NCBI GenBank assembly: GCA_035477615.1
Contig: DATIKJ010000051.1
Location: 1,009-65,008 of the forward strand
DNA from: Spirochaetia bacterium
GTDB lineage: Bacteria; Patescibacteriota; Microgenomatia; UBA1400; MFAQ01
Direction of reading: 5' to 3'
DNA length: 64,000 nt
Below, in pieces: positions 2,563 to 19,580 of the stretch; within the stretch, counting starts at the first letter, position 1; every line of letters begins with the position of its first letter. The translations under genes and the position numbers were made by a program. Below the pieces are notes generated by a model, which had not been told where the DNA came from, searched no databases, and saw only the letters and a program-made list of their open reading frames with translations.

Positions 2563-4053
2563 TTAATCTTTCTTAACTCTCAAGGGAGGAAATAGCGTTC
2601 CTTCACGAGCCGACACATCTTCCATAAACCAGAAGAGTCTCTCCGACATGCCAAAACCTGAAGTTGGTGGCATTCCATACGAAAGCATTTCCACGAAATC
2701 AGTATCCATCATCTGTGCTTCTTCGTCGCCTTTTTCTCTAGCCTTTTGTTGTTCTTCAAATCGAGATCTCTGATCGATCGGATCATTTAATTCTGAGTAA
2801 CCATTCCCTAGTTCCGACCCTGCCAAAATAATATGAAATCTTTCGGTGATTTCAGGATCTTCTGCTTTACTCTTCGCCAAAGGCGACATAAATTTTGGTT
2901 CATTGAGAAGAAATGCAGGTCCTGCAATTGTCTTCCGCACTATCTTCCAGCAATTATCGATCAAACGCGCTCGATTAATTTCTCCAGTCAGTTTCACCCC
3001 CGCCTTTCTGATTGCTTCAACCATCTCTGCTTCTGTAGAGTTCACAATATCAATTGCAATTTTTTCTTTGATCACTTTCAGATAATCGATCTCTTTCCAA
3101 TCATCAGCCAAGTCATACTCCATTCCTCGACTGACAAATTTTGTCTTTCCATAAACTTCTTTCGCCAAATGACGATAAAGTTCACGGGTCAACTGCATAT
3201 TGTCTCGATAGTCAGCAAACGCCCAGTACCACTCCAAAGAATAGTACTCTGGCAGATGTTCGTCATCCATTCCTTCATTCCGAAAGTTTGGTGCCAAGGT
3301 ATATATCTTTTCAAAACCCGCTCCAATTAGTCTCTTTTGATAGAGCTCGGTAGAAATGCGCAAATAGAAATCTTGATCAATAGCATTCATGTGGGTCATA
3401 AATGGTTTGGCATCTGCCCCTCCAGTTACCGACTCCAATACTGGTGTTTCTACTTCAATAAACCCCTTACTTGCCATATATTTTCGACACTCACTCCAAA
3501 ACTTTGCCTTTCTCTCAAATCGCGCAATCTTCTCAGGGCTCATCAATAGATCCAGATATCTTTTTCGAAAAGCCTCATCAGGGTCGACAATCCCCACCCA
3601 TTTTTCAGGTAAGGGGAGTCTTGCTTTAGTTAATATCTTAATTTCTTTTACTTGTAGTGATACTTCACCAGTTCTGGTTTTTACCACTTCTCCTGTCGCT
3701 TGAATAATGTCTCCGATGTCTAAATAGTCCAATTCCATAAACCCTAGTGTCTGTCTGGCCTTATCCGCCTTACTCATCGAATCAGCTCGAATAAACAACT
3801 GGATCTTGCCTGATTGATCTTGAATTTGTCCAAAAATAAGTTTGCCGTGTTCTCTCCATGCCATAATTCTCCCTGCCAAAGTTAATGTCTTCCCTTCATA
3901 CTTCTCAAAATTACTCACCACCTCCATATTGGCAGCCTCTTTTACTGAGCGTGCTGGATACAAATCAATCCCCATCTTTTGAAGAGCTTCTACTTTTTTT
4001 TCTCGTTCCTTTAGAATTTCATCCAATCTACTTGCCATGCTCCAATTATACAA
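2563..4053 (-). CDS. lysS: Lysyl-tRNA synthetase, class II
   Basis: 496 aa; N-terminal OB-fold anticodon-binding region and class II catalytic motifs (FRNEG, GxGxGxDR-like C-terminus). Confidence 0.9.
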   Translation of the reverse strand: MYNWSMASRLDEILKEREKKVEALQKMGIDLYPARSVKEAANMEVVSNFEKYEGKTLTLAGRIMAWREHGKLIFGQIQDQSGKIQLFIRADSMSKADKARQTLGFMELDYLDIGDIIQATGEVVKTRTGEVSLQVKEIKILTKARLPLPEKWVGIVDPDEAFRKRYLDLLMSPEKIARFERKAKFWSECRKYMASKGFIEVETPVLESVTGGADAKPFMTHMNAIDQDFYLRISTELYQKRLIGAGFEKIYTLAPNFRNEGMDDEHLPEYYSLEWYWAFADYRDNMQLTRELYRHLAKEVYGKTKFVSRGMEYDLADDWKEIDYLKVIKEKIAIDIVNSTEAEMVEAIRKAGVKLTGEINRARLIDNCWKIVRKTIAGPAFLLNEPKFMSPLAKSKAEDPEITERFHIILAGSELGNGYSELNDPIDQRSRFEEQQKAREKGDEEAQMMDTDFVEMLSYGMPPTSGFGMSERLFWFMEDVSAREGTLFPPLRVKKD

Positions 4054-4062
4054 GCTCTAACG

Positions 4063-5754
4063 CTACATCTTCTCTACCGTCTCGATCCCTAAGAAACTCA
4101 ATCCTTTTTTAATCACTTCTCCTGTTAGTAATGTTAACCTCAAACGCAAACTTTGGTTTTCTACTCCAATTACTTTATTCCTTTCATAAAATCCATTAAA
4201 CTTTTGCGCTGTTTCAAATAGATATGCACATACTTGTTGTGGTGCAAAGTTCCTGGCAGCCGACTCCACTATTTCCCCTTCCGCAAATCGCAGTAGCAAC
4301 CATCTTGCTAGTATTTTTTCGTCTTCATTGGCGAATGTCTTTCCATCATCACCAATCTTTTCTATATTTTCCCCAGACTTATTTAATATGCCTCGTGTCC
4401 TCACATACACATACTGTAGATATGGTGCGCTGTTTCCTTCCATTGATAAAGCCTCATCCCATTTAAAAATATAGTCCATCCCAGGGGATCTTTTCAATTC
4501 GTTATACTTCACTGCTCCAATAGAAATTATCTCTCCACCCACCGCTTTTTCTTCTGCTCTATTGAGTAAATCTTCCAGTTTAATCGTCATTCCTTTTCTA
4601 GTACTCATCTTCCCTTCAGGTAAACTCAAAAGTCCGTGGGCCACATGGACAAACTCTACTTTGCTTGTCTCTTCCGGCCATAGTTTTTTCACTGTCGCAA
4701 ACACTTGTCTCATATGGAGTTTCTGCTCCCCTCCAATTTCGTAAATAAATAAATCCGACTTCAAACTAGGATCATCCAATCTTCTCCTAATAGTTGCCAA
4801 GTCTCTTGTAAAGTAAGTTGTCGACCCATCACTTTTCACTAGCATCGCTGGTGGCATTTCTTCTTTCCCATTCTCGCCTTTAAACTCCACAATCAAAGCT
4901 CCTTCTTCACCCACAGACGATACTCCTTTATTTTTTGCCTCTTCAATTATTCTTGGCATCATACTCTCATATACCGACTCACCTAACGTATTCTCAAACT
5001 CCACTCCCAGCTTTTTATAAATCTGCTCAAATTCCTTCATTGAAATATCCCAAGATTTTTTCCATATCTCCCTGGCAGTTGTGTCTCCCTTTTCTAATCT
5101 GAGGAATGCTTCTTTTGCTTTATTTCTTAACTCAGGATCTGTTTCAATCCTTTTATTAAAGTCCACATATATTTCCTCCAGTTTATTAATGTCCACACCA
5201 CTCCAGTCAAAATTGGGTTTTTCCTCAACTGCCGCAATGATCATCCCAAACTGCGTTCCCCAGTCCCCTAGATGATTATCATTAGTCACTCTCTCAGCTC
5301 CGGTGTGTTTGTATAGATTAAAAATTGCTTGGCCAATAATTGTCGATCGCAAATGCCCCACAGAAAAACGCTTGGCAATGTTAGGCGATGAATACTCTAC
5401 CAATATTTTTTTCCCTTTCATAAAATCACTATCTCCCAAACAATCTCCTGATTTCAAAGTCTCATTCAATTTTTCTATCAATATCTCGTCCTTAACCCAA
5501 AAATTGATAAACCCCGGACCAGCCACTTGAATTTTTTCCCCGTCAACAATTCTCATCAGTTCCTTATTTCCTTGCAGTTTGTTCACCAAATCAACCGCCA
5601 GCTCCCGAGGATTTCTCCCAAGTTCCTTGGCCATCACCATGGCTATATTCGTCGAGTAGTCTCCCATCTTCTCATCAGCCGGATGTTCCACGTTAAACTC
5701 CTTACCTAAAGACAACTCCTCAATCGCTTTTCTTATTTCTTCTTTAACTTTCAT
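4063..5754 (-). CDS. argS: Arginyl-tRNA synthetase
   Basis: 563 aa; class I Rossmann core with HIGH-like SSPNIAKRFSVGHLRS region, and C-terminal DALR anticodon-binding domain ending ...VEKM; 9-nt gap to lysS suggests co-transcription. Confidence 0.9.
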   Translation of the reverse strand: MKVKEEIRKAIEELSLGKEFNVEHPADEKMGDYSTNIAMVMAKELGRNPRELAVDLVNKLQGNKELMRIVDGEKIQVAGPGFINFWVKDEILIEKLNETLKSGDCLGDSDFMKGKKILVEYSSPNIAKRFSVGHLRSTIIGQAIFNLYKHTGAERVTNDNHLGDWGTQFGMIIAAVEEKPNFDWSGVDINKLEEIYVDFNKRIETDPELRNKAKEAFLRLEKGDTTAREIWKKSWDISMKEFEQIYKKLGVEFENTLGESVYESMMPRIIEEAKNKGVSSVGEEGALIVEFKGENGKEEMPPAMLVKSDGSTTYFTRDLATIRRRLDDPSLKSDLFIYEIGGEQKLHMRQVFATVKKLWPEETSKVEFVHVAHGLLSLPEGKMSTRKGMTIKLEDLLNRAEEKAVGGEIISIGAVKYNELKRSPGMDYIFKWDEALSMEGNSAPYLQYVYVRTRGILNKSGENIEKIGDDGKTFANEDEKILARWLLLRFAEGEIVESAARNFAPQQVCAYLFETAQKFNGFYERNKVIGVENQSLRLRLTLLTGEVIKKGLSFLGIETVEKM

Positions 5755-5947
5755 ATTGATTTAACAAATTAAAACCCCTCACTTAAACCTCGATAATTAA
5801 TCTTAGCTTAAGTCAGGGGTTCTTGAGAGAACGGTACCACCCTTCCATACTCTTTGTGCTATTACGGGCTACCCCGATGAATTTCTTCACTTGCTCCGAA
5901 GATCGCGACTCTTCATCAACGCTACTCATATTTTACTCCTAATACAT
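5755..5947 (-). promoter_or_regulatory. T-box-like antitermination leader of argS-lysS
   Basis: Minus strand contains AGGGTGGTACCG (12/12 match to T-box core AGGGUGGNACCG) in antiterminator arrangement: A1 (AAGGG / CCCT), 7-nt bulge TGGTACC, A2 hairpin GTTCT-ctca-AGAAC. A competing 14-bp terminator (AACCCCTCACTTAA / TTAAGTCAGGGGTT) plus TTTTAATTT ends about 10 nt before the argS ATG. Confidence 0.55.
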
Positions 5948-6928
5948 CTATTTGTGCTCTTCCAAATATTTCTCCGCATCCAGCGCTGCCTGACAACCCA
6001 TTCCTGCGGCTGTAATCGCTTGTCTATATCTATAATCCACCACGTCTCCACAGCCAAAAACCCCTTCTACCGAAGTCATTGTTGGAAACCCATCTTTCCA
6101 CATATCCTTTTCACTCACTCTCCATTTTGTATCCGTCATTAAAGCCGTCATTGTTGTTCGTAGATATCCTTTTTCATCAAGTTCCAACTTTCCTTCAAAA
6201 AGTTTCGTCGTTGGCACATGACCAATCGCCACAAACAAACCATCTGCGTCATATTCTGTCACTTCCCCAGACTTTACATTCTTAACCTTAATTGTCGTCA
6301 GTTTTGTCTCACCCGATACTCCGATCACCTCACTACTCCACAACACTTTTATTTTGGAATTTGCCAACACTCTATCTTGCATTATTTTGCTTGCCCTAAA
6401 CTCATCTCTCCTGTGGATGATTGTTACTTCATCAGCAAACTTCGCCAAAGCCATCGCATCCTCCATCGCTGCATCTCCTCCACCAACAACAAAGGTTTTT
6501 TTACCTTTGAAAAAAGCAGCATCGCATACTGCACAAGTACTTACTCCTCGACCAACATAAGCTTCTTCCTCTATCCCAATCATCTGTGATGTCGCTCCGG
6601 TTGAAACTACAACAGCCCTTGCCTCATAAACGGTTTCCCCAACCCAAACTTTTTTTATCTCCCCGGTCAGATCCACTCTACTAACTTCGGAATAAATTAC
6701 TTCCGTTCCAAACCTTTTTGCCTGTTTTTCCATTGTCATCATCAAGTCCGGTCCCATGATCCCCTCAGAAAATCCGGGAAAGTTCTCCACCTCGCTAGTA
6801 TTCATCAACTGACCTCCAGGGTTAACTCCTGTCAAGACCAAAACCGACAAAGTCGCTCTTCCCAAATATATTGCCGCAGTATACCCACTCGGCCCGCCGC
6901 CAATTACAAGAACATCGTACTTCTTCAT
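5948..6928 (-). CDS. trxB: Thioredoxin-disulfide reductase
   Basis: 326 aa; FAD GxGxxG (VIGGGPSG), redox-active CAVC, NADPH-binding GGGDAA motif. Confidence 0.9.
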   Translation of the reverse strand: MKKYDVLVIGGGPSGYTAAIYLGRATLSVLVLTGVNPGGQLMNTSEVENFPGFSEGIMGPDLMMTMEKQAKRFGTEVIYSEVSRVDLTGEIKKVWVGETVYEARAVVVSTGATSQMIGIEEEAYVGRGVSTCAVCDAAFFKGKKTFVVGGGDAAMEDAMALAKFADEVTIIHRRDEFRASKIMQDRVLANSKIKVLWSSEVIGVSGETKLTTIKVKNVKSGEVTEYDADGLFVAIGHVPTTKLFEGKLELDEKGYLRTTMTALMTDTKWRVSEKDMWKDGFPTMTSVEGVFGCGDVVDYRYRQAITAAGMGCQAALDAEKYLEEHK

Positions 6929-15268: not shown

Positions 15269-16369
15269 TTATTTAAATCCCTTCACCCTCCCCAGCACAT
15301 ACACCGCTCCTTTTGTTTTTCCCTTCTTCCTTAGTAGTTTTTTTAAAATCAAATCTTTAATATCGCGCAAAATAGTATCATCAGAAACCATTGGCAGTAT
15401 TCCTCTAATCTCTTTAATTGTCATTTCCCCCTGAATTGTCATCTCTTCCATAATTGTAATTTCTCTTTCTGAAAGAGAAATTACTTTGCCCACTTCAGAC
15501 TTAAATACTGGTCGGTCACCAACTAAATTCATTATTTTTACTCTTGTCTTTTCTGCCGATTCCGATAAGGTTTTTGTAAAATACTCCAACCATCCAGTTA
15601 AATCTTCACTATCCACTGTCTGAGAAAATATTTCTCCAAATCTCGATTTATTTTTTAACAAATCTTCTTCAAAAGGCCACATCTCCTTCATTCCATAACC
15701 ATCGTTAGCCATAGTCAAACTTGAAAAAAATAAGCTTGCGCTCAGGTTATTTTCTTCAAAAGGTCTTATTCTCATAATCTCAAATAATACTATCCCCGCC
15801 TTAATCACTGAATGAATATCCGATTTTGAAACACTCTTAAACCATGAAAACAAATCTTCCATCTGATAACTCACCTCAATTGGTGCTGGAGACTTAATTT
15901 CTGGATATTCTAGACTGTCTTTTCCCCGATACTCCCCAAGAGAGTTTGAACACACAACTCGCTCACCTAAAAGAGAATTTATTGTCTTCAAATCTTTCTC
16001 TCCAAATATCTCTTGTTTAAACTTTTTGGTTAAATAGGCAGTTTGACTCACCAAACGATACGAATTCAGCCAGTTAATTGCTTTCTGAACATCTTTTTCT
16101 TTGGCTACTACTCCAATTCGAAGAGCTACCTGTGTTGGTTTATCGTCCCTTCCAGGATCATCTTTCACAATCTTCGATATATCATCAATATCAAGTTGAC
16201 AATCCAAATAGTGCAACACACTGTAAGCTCTTTTAGAAAGACACTCTAATTTAATTTTTGTCTCCCAATCAACTTGCAATGGCGCCAAATCAGCCACCAA
16301 TACCGCTTTTTCAAGCTCAATTAAGTTGTTTACTATTCTGTTAGAAAATATAAATTGAGGACTAAACAC
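15269..16369 (-). CDS. Fic-fold protein with degenerate active-site motif (pseudo-Fic) and C-terminal winged-helix
   Basis: 366 aa; IKAGIVLFEIMRIRPFEENNLSASLFFSSL aligns to Fic core (..AGI.HF.F..IHPFxDGNGRxxRLL) but HPFxDGNGR is RPFEENNLS; C-terminal wHTH-like segment (EMTIKEIRGILP...ILRDIKDL). Confidence 0.55.
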   Translation of the reverse strand: MFSPQFIFSNRIVNNLIELEKAVLVADLAPLQVDWETKIKLECLSKRAYSVLHYLDCQLDIDDISKIVKDDPGRDDKPTQVALRIGVVAKEKDVQKAINWLNSYRLVSQTAYLTKKFKQEIFGEKDLKTINSLLGERVVCSNSLGEYRGKDSLEYPEIKSPAPIEVSYQMEDLFSWFKSVSKSDIHSVIKAGIVLFEIMRIRPFEENNLSASLFFSSLTMANDGYGMKEMWPFEEDLLKNKSRFGEIFSQTVDSEDLTGWLEYFTKTLSESAEKTRVKIMNLVGDRPVFKSEVGKVISLSEREITIMEEMTIQGEMTIKEIRGILPMVSDDTILRDIKDLILKKLLRKKGKTKGAVYVLGRVKGFK

Positions 16370-16398
16370 ATCATTATTTTCGCATCATTTGCGGAAAA

Positions 16399-18611: not shown

Positions 18612-18731
18612 GTCTATATTCTAGCATCGTAATTAAGTGAACAAAGTGAATGAATTACGAGCGAATATAAGAGGAAGCGCAGGAATAACATTTCCATAAT
18701 GAATATTATGGAAAGGGTGACGAGCAAGCTC

Positions 18732-19580
18732 TTATATTTGACAATTTTGACAAAAGAATGTTCCTCGTCCCCCTATCTTCATTTTTTTGAAGATTCCACC
18801 ACACTTCCTACACTTCTGTCCATCTTTCTTATAAACCAAGAAATGATCTTGATATGTACCACCCAAACCATTTGTATCTACATAGTTGGCTGCACTTGCT
18901 CCACCATATTTAAGACCTTTGCTTATGACTTCCCTTATTGAAGCCAGCAAATTTATCACTTCTTGATGGCTCAAACTACTTGCTTTCCGATTTGGCATCA
19001 CTTTAGCCAAGTAAAGAGCATCATTAGCATAAATATTTCCTACTCCTCCAATTTTTTCTTGATCCATTAACACCAGTTTTACCGCTTTTCCTGATTTGCT
19101 TAATACCTTTGTAACATACTCCAAAGAAAATTCTTTTTCTGTCACATCTGGTGCTGTTTTCCTAATTTCTTTTTCATATTTTTTCTTTTCGACCATTCTC
19201 ATCCACCCAAACACTCTCATGTCATTAAAAAATAACTTCGAACCGTCAGTAAAATCTATTACCACCCTGGTATGTTTACTTGGCAAATCCTTAACCCAAT
19301 CCGCTGTTGGATGACCGCCCACAACTCGTCTTTCTTTATCCACAAACACCAACTGTCCTGTCATCTTTAGATGGACAATCACTATCTTCTCCTTGCCTTT
19401 GAAATAAATCTCAATTATTTTAGATTTTCTATCAATCTTTTCCACCTCCCCCCCAATCAATTCTTTTGCCTCACCTCCAAAACTTTTTTCTCGAAGCACC
19501 TCAACCCTATCTAATATCTTTCCAACCAACACCTCATTAAGCTGTCGCCTAATTGTCTCTACTTCTGGTAACTCAGGCAT
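18732..19580 (-). CDS. mutM: Formamidopyrimidine-DNA glycosylase
   Basis: 282 aa; N-terminal MPELPEVE catalytic Pro2/Glu3, H2TH region, C-terminal zinc finger CRKCG...CQNC. Confidence 0.9.
   Translation of the reverse strand: MPELPEVETIRRQLNEVLVGKILDRVEVLREKSFGGEAKELIGGEVEKIDRKSKIIEIYFKGKEKIVIVHLKMTGQLVFVDKERRVVGGHPTADWVKDLPSKHTRVVIDFTDGSKLFFNDMRVFGWMRMVEKKKYEKEIRKTAPDVTEKEFSLEYVTKVLSKSGKAVKLVLMDQEKIGGVGNIYANDALYLAKVMPNRKASSLSHQEVINLLASIREVISKGLKYGGASAANYVDTNGLGGTYQDHFLVYKKDGQKCRKCGGIFKKMKIGGRGTFFCQNCQI

Follow-up and report, generated by a model that had tools for sequence, protein, structure and literature searches.

What controls the arginine--tRNA ligase gene (argS) in the 64-kb stretch of DNA studied here, called the window below? 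On its minus strand the stop codon of trxB (5948-5950) and the ATG of argS (5754) are separated by a 193-nt intergenic space, in which a first-pass annotation had placed a T-box leader. T-boxes are a model system for RNA-RNA recognition and are pursued as targets for antibiotics, and their minimal requirements are still debated. Judging from its sequence and that of its relatives, we regard the argS leader as very likely to be a tRNA-sensing T-box switch. Almost as likely, in our opinion, is the fuller proposal that it is a miniaturised transcriptional T-box riboswitch, which would sense uncharged tRNA-Arg and control read-through into argS and, in this genome, also into lysS.

The T-box core and two exclusive folds

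The leader carries the T-box core AGGGTGGTACCG at 5832-5843 of the minus strand. As annotated, it is identical to the conserved T-box sequence; it is present in a single copy in the window, for a chance expectation of 0.01. Two overlapping structures are built around it, immediately ahead of argS:

5815-5843, minus strand: antiterminator, made of A1, the T-box bulge and A2; invariant or covarying in eight leaders
5773-5821, minus strand: intrinsic terminator, with a U-rich tract at 5765-5772; overlaps the 3' strands of A2 and A1
4063-5754, minus strand: argS, arginine--tRNA ligase, the regulated gene (TIGR00456, 427.9 bits, NCBIfam)

The eight leaders are those of the window and of seven related loci with a full leader: L005, L007, L008, L131, L132 (= L133), L136 and L139 (= L140). 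A further one, L130, is cut by a contig end. They were taken from genome loci and from contigs retrieved by exact-protein look-up. Contigs DAOORK010000001.1 and MFAP01000001.1 belong to genomes with the leader.

The antiterminator begins with A1, which pairs AGGG (5840-5843) with CCCU (5815-5818). The pairing had been annotated correctly, except that it is 4 bp long and not 5. Between A1 and A2 lies the 7-nt T-box bulge UGGUACC (5833-5839), invariant across leaders, and A2 is the hairpin GUUCU-CUCA-AGAAC (5819-5832), both as previously described. Folded alone, the antiterminator has an energy of -6.5 kcal/mol. A2 varies from 3 to 5 bp across leaders and contains one compensatory pair. In two leaders (L132, 9815-9838; L139, 171-194) a GC-rich hairpin GGCCGACAGGCC is inserted in the A2 loop, which recalls the lineage-specific insertions of staphylococcal glyS T-boxes.

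The terminator is far more stable: its strands AACCCCUGACUUAAGC and GUUUAAGUGAGGGGUU, which include one conserved G.G mismatch, pair with an energy of -27.3 kcal/mol (z = -7.3), and none of 200 shuffled sequences was equally stable. It has the sequence ACCCCU in common with the antiterminator. The two folds are mutually exclusive because the terminator re-uses the 3' strands of A2 and A1, and this part of the first-pass annotation holds in full. The U-rich tract UUUUAAUUU ends at 5765, about 10 nt ahead of the argS ATG. All leaders retain the terminator, with exchanges between G-U, A-U and G-C pairs, two compensatory pairs and a U-rich tail. The interior loop of the stem explains why it was missed by a simple terminator scanner.

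The same hairpin could be supposed to act on translation, by sequestering in its 3' strand the sequence GAGGGG as a ribosome-binding site. Short Stem I elements with an apical loop, such as the one found here, have been described mostly in translational T-boxes, and in L139 this Shine-Dalgarno (SD)-like sequence lies 11 nt from the AUG. Its distance from the AUG is however 20 nt in the window and ~60-140 nt in L007, L008, L131 and L132; moreover the hairpin is shaped like an intrinsic terminator and is followed by a U-rich tract in all leaders. The distance from terminator to start codon ranges overall from 11 to ~140 nt. This variability, combined with a U-tract in every leader, makes SD sequestration unlikely and favours transcription termination. 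We therefore give translational control very little credit, and the switch would operate at the level of transcription.

The sensor and its candidate specifier

Upstream of the switch, the same order of segments can be parsed in 8/8 leaders. In the window these segments are:

5930-5935, minus strand: -10-like box TAAAAT, a putative promoter element 6-8 nt upstream of Stem I
5892-5923, minus strand: ultrashort Stem I, with C-stem AGC/GC(A), bulge GUU, tandem GA/GA, helix and apical loop
5903-5909, minus strand: apical loop GUCGCGA, of which GUCGCG is invariant in 8/8 leaders
5877-5890, minus strand: hairpin 2, GUGAA-GAAA-UUCAU, 5 bp, capped by the GNRA tetraloop GAAA (5882-5885)
5862-5876, minus strand: hairpin 3, CGGG-GUAG-CCCG, then UAA; CCCGUAA is F-box-like
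5850-5860, minus strand: purine-rich linker AGCACAAAGAG, invariant in 8/8 leaders, with one extra A in L008

The sensor proper occupies 108 nt (5816-5923). Measured from the kink-turn (K-turn) of Stem I to the end of the antiterminator, its length is 105-108 nt across leaders, and 125 nt with a hairpin inserted in the A2 loop. The leader had been annotated as about 190 nt long, which is true of the intergenic space; the RNA from the likely -10 box to the U-tract is just ~160 nt. A TAAAAT, TATAAT or TAGAAT box is found at an equal offset in 8/8 leaders, often with an extended-10 TG, so placed that transcription is likely to start just before 5923. The promoter of the window leader was not called by a consensus promoter scanner because its -35 region is weak.

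Stem I follows one plan in the eight leaders: AGC, a variable 3-nt bulge, GA, a helix of 5-6 bp, the loop GUCGCG(A), the 3' strand of the helix, GA and GCU. The GA...GA elements are invariant and form, with the 3-nt bulge and a C-stem of 2-3 bp, the signature of a K-turn; by this signature the base of Stem I is of the K-turn type. Both of its strands match the Stem I base consensus of the Rfam T-box family RF00230 (gC-gaU-GA-aagGG / CCcu-gGA-Gc), and a model of C/D-box sRNA, a K-turn RNA, matches the Stem I stretch of an orthologous leader. The helix above the K-turn occurs as GAAGA/UCUUC, AGAGA/UCUCU or AGGGA/UCCCU, with three compensatory pairs and 95% of positions paired. In the window it has 6 bp (UGAAGA/UCUUCG) below the loop GUCGCGA, and folds so in isolation. 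RNAalifold proposed instead a pairing of CUUUG, in the K-turn bulge, with CAAAG in the linker. This pairing has a G.A mismatch in 4/8 leaders and no compensation, and the three variable nucleotides are read as K-turn bulge because this gives a better fit.

Hairpin 2 starts one or two nucleotides after Stem I. It measures 14-16 nt with 4-5 bp across leaders, is 100% paired, and 3/4 of its pairs show compensatory changes (GUGA/UCAU, GUGG/UCAC, GUUG/CAGC, GCGG/CCGC). Its GAAA cap is invariant in 8/8 leaders. The cap is closed by an A-U pair in the window, L005 and L008; L007, L131, L132, L136 and L139, which make up the second of the two ArgRS clades described below apart from L008, carry an extra G on each side of the loop, so that A.G and then G.U precede GAAA. 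Hairpin 3 abuts hairpin 2 and consists of an invariant CGGG-NNNN-CCCG stem with a CCCG-N-N-A tail, of which the A is invariant. For a IIB pseudoknot, just 2-3 loop-to-linker pairs (GU/AC) would be possible, and they have no covariation support. The AAGAG of the linker conforms to RRRxG, the string found next to Stem III in known discriminators. Here Stem III is replaced by a variable A-rich spacer of 7-9 nt (5844-5849 in the window) between the linker and A1, and no conserved hairpin can be formed there in the eight leaders.

This anatomy bears on the type of T-box. The leader had been annotated as a glyQS-like variant devoid of Stem II, and one might argue for a canonical long-Stem-I T-box of that kind that is too divergent for the Rfam model, since its T-box core, terminator and K-turn Stem I base are all canonical. 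Leaders of the glyQS type lack Stem II but retain a long Stem I, with its internal specifier loop and a distal platform for the tRNA elbow. What is found does not fit: the long Stem I and Stem III are missing, and two small hairpins are located where Stem II and Stem IIA/B would be expected and where glyQS has a linker alone. The ~30 nt between the K-turn strands hold just the covarying 5-6 bp hairpin and its loop of 6-7 nt. An internal specifier loop could not be accommodated there, and neither could the AG bulge and distal loop that jointly make up the elbow platform; hairpin 2 is itself too small for an internal loop. None of these elements, nor an S-turn, is present in the eight leaders. 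Single-sequence minimum free energy folding of the window does yield a long Stem I closed by GAUGAA/UUCAUC. We dropped this pairing because it is broken in relatives (in L005; it is impossible in L007, L131, L132, L136 and L139) while the local hairpins covary. The check with RF00230 that had been proposed in the first-pass annotation fails: this model gave no match at its gathering score in the window and none at E<=10 in the 401 nt searched around the leader. The orthologous L007 leader, searched by itself, was matched in 5'-truncated form with 15.3 bits, where the gathering score is 93. As a positive control, the same model detects a true long-Stem-I T-box of the same lineage (L132, 21017-21264) at 96.4 bits; the failure is therefore a property of the argS leader and not of the host lineage. 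For all these reasons a divergent glyQS-like T-box is hardly credible. The presence of this canonical T-box elsewhere in related genomes also indicates that the T-box mechanism is in use in this lineage.

Where would such a short sensor present its codon? The first-pass annotation had left the specifier codon unassigned and proposed to check whether a specifier loop of Stem I presents an Arg (or Lys) codon. Stem I has neither an internal loop of this kind nor a distal platform, and an Arg codon probably stands in the apical loop. By analogy with other T-boxes, the candidate that we favour with reasonable confidence is CGC (5905-5907), followed by the purine G (5904); the assignment was made by positional homology. 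CGC is invariant in 8/8 leaders, all upstream of argS. In the stretch GU-CGC-G-UCCCU-GA-GCU, codon and purine stand directly 5' of the 3' strand of the helix and of the K-turn GA. Likewise, every T-box described so far holds its specifier in the part of Stem I above the K-turn, immediately 5' of the 3' strand of the helix. The RF00230 consensus has the same order, with codon and purine, then helix strand, then K-turn GA. So does the glyQ leader of O. iheyensis (GAA-GGC-A-CUUC-GA-GCA), in which codon and purine are directly 5' of the strand leading into the K-turn GA. In short Stem I elements an apical loop carries the specifier, and the K-turn below it is essential (PMC7583486).

The register can be compared with that of the short Stem I of N. 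farcinica ileS T99, for which PMC7583486 and PMC10651847 place GA at nt 7-8, C14 in the loop, the codon at 16-18 and A19 after it. The coordinate file (PDB) of the PMC10651847 supplement starts with G1 G2 C3 G4 A5 C6 G7 A8 U9 C10 C11 G12, with the K-turn GA at nt 7-8. Counted from a 3-nt C-stem, the leaders of L007, L131, L132, L136 and L139 have GA at nt 7-8; their loop opens at nt 14, CGC occupies nt 16-18 and G follows at 19. In the window and L005, whose Stem I is one base pair longer, CGC with its purine falls at nt 17-20. The third-position C of CGC obeys the published 'C rule', although CGC is rare (3/107 Arg codons in the window).

The loop of hairpin 2 offers another candidate. Its sequence is A-GA-AAU in three leaders and A-GG-AAAUG in the other five, so that AGA or AGG, both Arg codons, precedes an A; and AGA is by far the commonest Arg codon of the window (56/107). 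The specifier would then be AGA (AGG in five leaders), reading tRNA-Arg(UCU/CCU), and GUCGCG would have another role. This triplet is however located inside a GNRA tetraloop, whose bases are not available for a codon-anticodon helix of 3 bp, and the difference between AGA and AGG is an insertion rather than a substitution. Known specifiers sit in Stem I above the K-turn, exactly where CGC-G lies, and the invariant GUCGCG would be left without explanation. We consider a specifier in hairpin 2 unlikely, and keep CGC as the preferred candidate.

From these elements a mechanism can be proposed. The nascent RNA would begin just upstream of the short Stem I, whose K-turn and 5-6 bp helix would present CGC and its purine in the apical loop, for pairing with the ACG/ICG anticodon of tRNA-Arg. 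Hairpin 2, and hairpin 3 with its F-box-like tail, would hold the places of Stem II and Stem IIA/B, and the GAAA tetraloop might brace the codon-anticodon helix by A-minor contacts. The 3' ACCA of an uncharged tRNA would pair with UGGU of the 7-nt bulge. UGGU suits a tRNA with discriminator A73, as in bacterial tRNA-Arg. The invariant AAAGAG purines may help to stabilise the weak antiterminator, and RNA polymerase would read through. With tRNA charged or absent, the far more stable terminator would form and transcription would end 10 nt before argS.

Two extensions of this mechanism are put forward more cautiously. It is conceivable, though we would not bet on it, that the leader is a natural minimal transcriptional T-box of ~105 nt, able to capture tRNA co-transcriptionally without elbow contact, S-turn Stem II or Stem III, and in which GAAA takes over the A-minor decoding role. 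Somewhat more speculative is the evolutionary proposal, based on register and conservation, that Stem II was cut down to a GNRA-capped stub whose adenines replace the S-turn purine string.

Conservation, patchy distribution and genomic context

The argS genes that carry the leader fall in two ArgRS clades, ~60-65% identical in protein. Leader identity to the window is 78-88%, whereas the four-fold degenerate sites of the adjacent argS genes are 27-37% identical, i.e. saturated. The leader is therefore under strong purifying selection. In the eight-leader alignment, 97% of the cells are paired and seven pairs are changed on both sides. None of 500 shuffles reached the real covariation score, and slid controls were 34-52% paired. 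These pair counts were made on an alignment refitted with our own covariance model, R1, and our own segmentation table agrees with them. The comparison with orthologous leaders that had been proposed in the first-pass annotation supported a T-box-type antiterminator/terminator switch ahead of argS-lysS, the whole leader being conserved and covarying in related genomes, with two helices (Stem I and hairpin 2) that covary.

These results can be confronted with the idea of a decaying or non-functional T-box remnant, or of a simple terminator or attenuator that acts constitutively and has ceased to bind tRNA. Deletions would have taken away Stem III, the distal part of Stem I and the greater part of Stem II. 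Parts described as essential are indeed missing, the genomes are reduced, and many relatives have lost the leader outright. A remnant would not, however, be kept so tightly: the remaining 105 nt are conserved at the level given above across lineages with saturated synonymous sites, compensatory changes maintain Stem I, hairpin 2 and A2, and the bulge, GUCGCG, GAAA and AGCACAAAGAG are invariant. A constitutive terminator of -27 kcal/mol before an essential, single-copy argS would also be harmful unless it could be overridden. Decay to a non-sensing remnant is in our view quite improbable.

Control by a leader peptide was rejected as well: the window leader has a 39-codon open reading frame (ORF) that starts in its -10 region, but none of the other leaders has an equivalent.

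The model R1 was used to search 384 kb of related loci, in which just the argS leaders match. A 37-bit R1 match in L104, a locus pre-selected by a scan pattern, is a canonical long-Stem-I T-box upstream of a major facilitator superfamily (MFS) transporter (RF00230, 59.7 bits), and the GGGAGUCGC found there corresponds to the K-turn 3' strand and the start of Stem II. A metagenome scan with the loose pattern AGCACAAAN{5,30}GGTGGNACC, for which at least about 120 matches arise by chance, gave no element of this class among the matches listed. A scan of viral contigs with a stricter pattern gave no match.

The distribution of the leader is patchy inside both ArgRS clades. It is missing at L001-L004, L006, L009, L134, L137, L141, L142, L143 and L145, where trxB or another gene abuts argS; at L001-L004, L006, L137, L141 and L142, argS begins 1-11 nt after the trxB stop codon. 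This pattern implies that the riboswitch was lost (or gained) repeatedly, and that argS became fused to the trxA-trxB operon.

Several points weigh against a functional miniature T-box acting on transcription. More than half of the related argS loci do without the leader, which is therefore dispensable. Covariation was assessed on 8 sequences of one candidate phylum-level group, five of them near-identical in hairpin 2, in a model-fitted alignment; the A1 pairs never vary among the eight leaders and bring no covariation evidence, and neither does hairpin 3, because its stem never varies. No tRNA-Arg gene was found in the window or in any retrieved related locus, and RF00230 does not detect the leader. 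Known T-boxes set further difficulties: transcriptional ones generally need the long Stem I platform, which is absent here; the discriminator core including Stem III, also absent here, is essentially identical in all of them; and short Stem I elements, typical of translational T-boxes, scarcely bind tRNA without a long Stem II bearing an S-turn (PMC7583486).

Downstream, the switch may reach a second synthetase:

2563-4053, minus strand: lysS, lysine--tRNA ligase (NCBIfam), 9-24 nt 3' of argS

The gap of 9 nt given by the first-pass annotation applies to the mechanically chosen TTG start of lysS, and becomes 24 nt if the ATG at 4038 is used. As the gap is small and no terminator was found between both genes, lysS is probably co-transcribed with argS. 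The idea of one switch for both synthetases holds for this genome but does not extend to the group, since argS-lysS linkage is not conserved and an opposite-strand gene lies between the two in several relatives. Further on the minus strand, two ORFs separate lysS from thrS: one at 2192-2491, small and resembling a ribbon-helix-helix antitoxin, and one at 1945-2199, resembling a HigB/RelE toxin. Upstream of this pair, a promoter with 11/12 consensus positions (2526->2498) breaks up the synthetase gene cluster. Given this strong promoter and the toxin-antitoxin pair, thrS is probably a transcription unit apart from argS-lysS.

The nearest ArgRS sequences are those of Candidatus Collierbacteria and other Microgenomates metagenome-assembled genomes (MAGs), members of the candidate phyla radiation (CPR/Patescibacteria). 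The host is an ultrasmall, Collierbacteria-like bacterium. An identical ArgRS protein carries the NCBI label 'Spirochaetia bacterium' (MAG, 66-kb contig), although all close relatives are Collierbacteria/Microgenomates; the label probably reflects faulty binning or taxonomy in the public record. The window has a GC content of ~39% and a strongly and uniformly negative GC skew (-0.20 to -0.44) across its whole length. The title of a paper on one Microgenomates genome (PMC7143001) announces an unusual disparity of nucleotide composition between the two DNA strands.

Another conserved and structured element, of ~95 nt, was noticed at 18655-18747 (minus strand) of the window, and also in L132 (9905-10000) and L008 (2895-3000). 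It has an outer stem AUAAGAG/CUCUUAU and an inner hairpin that covaries (UUCAAUAAU/AUUAUUGAA vs UUCCAUAAU/AUUAUGGAA), and it contains CUUCCUCUU, an anti-SD-like stretch. In the window it is located between fpg-like and recF-like genes, and in the two relatives between the T-box terminator and the argS start. It has no Rfam match, and may be a small repeat resembling a miniature inverted-repeat transposable element (MITE) or a 5'-UTR (untranslated region) element of new type.

Significance and comparison with known T-boxes

If the minimal T-box proposed here is real, the long Stem I platform is not a universal need of transcriptional T-boxes, the discriminator core including Stem III is not universally invariant, and T-box regulation reaches CPR/Patescibacteria in a form missed by current models. 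A conserved natural version of 105 nt would set a much smaller functional core and provide a compact scaffold for engineering. It would also join the short apical-loop Stem I, so far tied to slow translational switches, to a kinetically demanding terminator. Surveys based on RF00230, including TBDB class I, would miss T-boxes in CPR bacteria, and the short-Stem-I model of TBDB was searched in Actinobacteria only. No paper linking T-boxes with CPR groups was found in a literature search, itself incomplete. CPR bacteria cannot make most amino acids, and the sensing of tRNA charging may be among their few regulatory inputs. The patchy leader is moreover a natural experiment in the gain or loss of riboswitch control, leaderless argS genes most often abutting trxB with a gap of a few nucleotides.

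Among known systems, the T-box of the related genome at L132 cited above comes from the same host group. Its discriminator, CAAGG-UGGUACC-GUCUU...AAGAC-CCUUG followed by a terminator, is like that of the argS leader. It differs in that its Stem I is full-length, with the distal motifs AGAGAG and GGUGGUGAAAGC, and in the presence of Stem II/IIA and Stem III. Canonical long-Stem-I T-boxes were also observed in L131 (~18760-19000) and L137/L138 (~16140-16380); like the one of L132, they lie upstream of a ~770-aa PPDK_N-domain protein. Their specifier would by position be GAA-UUA-A (Leu?), and the regulated gene is unusual for a T-box.

Canonical transcriptional T-boxes (RF00230; TBDB class I; B. 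subtilis tyrS and glyQS) resemble the argS leader in their position upstream of an aminoacyl-tRNA synthetase gene, their K-turn at the base of Stem I, their codon and purine directly 5' of the helix 3' strand, their T-box sequence AGGGUGGUACCG, and the competition of an A1/bulge/A2 antiterminator with a terminator and U-tract. The argS leader differs from them by the lack of an internal specifier loop, S-turn, AG bulge, distal loop (interdigitated T-loop motif, IDTM) and Stem III, so that its sensor spans 105-108 nt vs 219 positions in the RF00230 consensus.

The other relevant class is that of the actinobacterial ileS translational T-boxes (N. farcinica, M. tuberculosis; TBDB class II). Sherwood and co-workers are said to have reported such T-boxes in 2015, and their Stem I is described as short or ultrashort. 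These ileS T-boxes have in common with the argS leader a K-turn and short helix with the specifier in the apical loop, in the same register in five of the eight argS leaders and shifted by 1 nt in the window. Common features are also the same T-box bulge, the lack of an elbow-binding platform and a small hairpin with a C-G-N-N-A F-box-like tail. The published F-boxes are CCGUCA (N. farcinica) and CGUCA (M. tuberculosis), and their final A makes an A-minor contact. Besides, the G-A-A of the GAAA loop stands at nt 37-39, where the S-turn of the ileS Stem II has G37 A38 A39.

The differences concern mainly Stem II, which in the argS leaders is ~16 nt long with a GNRA cap and in ileS ~45-50 nt with an S-turn; the length difference from the N. 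farcinica decoding module corresponds almost wholly to the upper Stem II missing in the argS leader. The latter also has no Stem III, ends in an intrinsic terminator and not in an SD sequestrator, is associated with Arg rather than Ile, and belongs to CPR/Patescibacteria rather than to Actinobacteria. The argS leader displays the T-box hallmarks that can be looked for in silico, and it belongs neither to the long-Stem-I class of RF00230 nor to the actinobacterial translational class.

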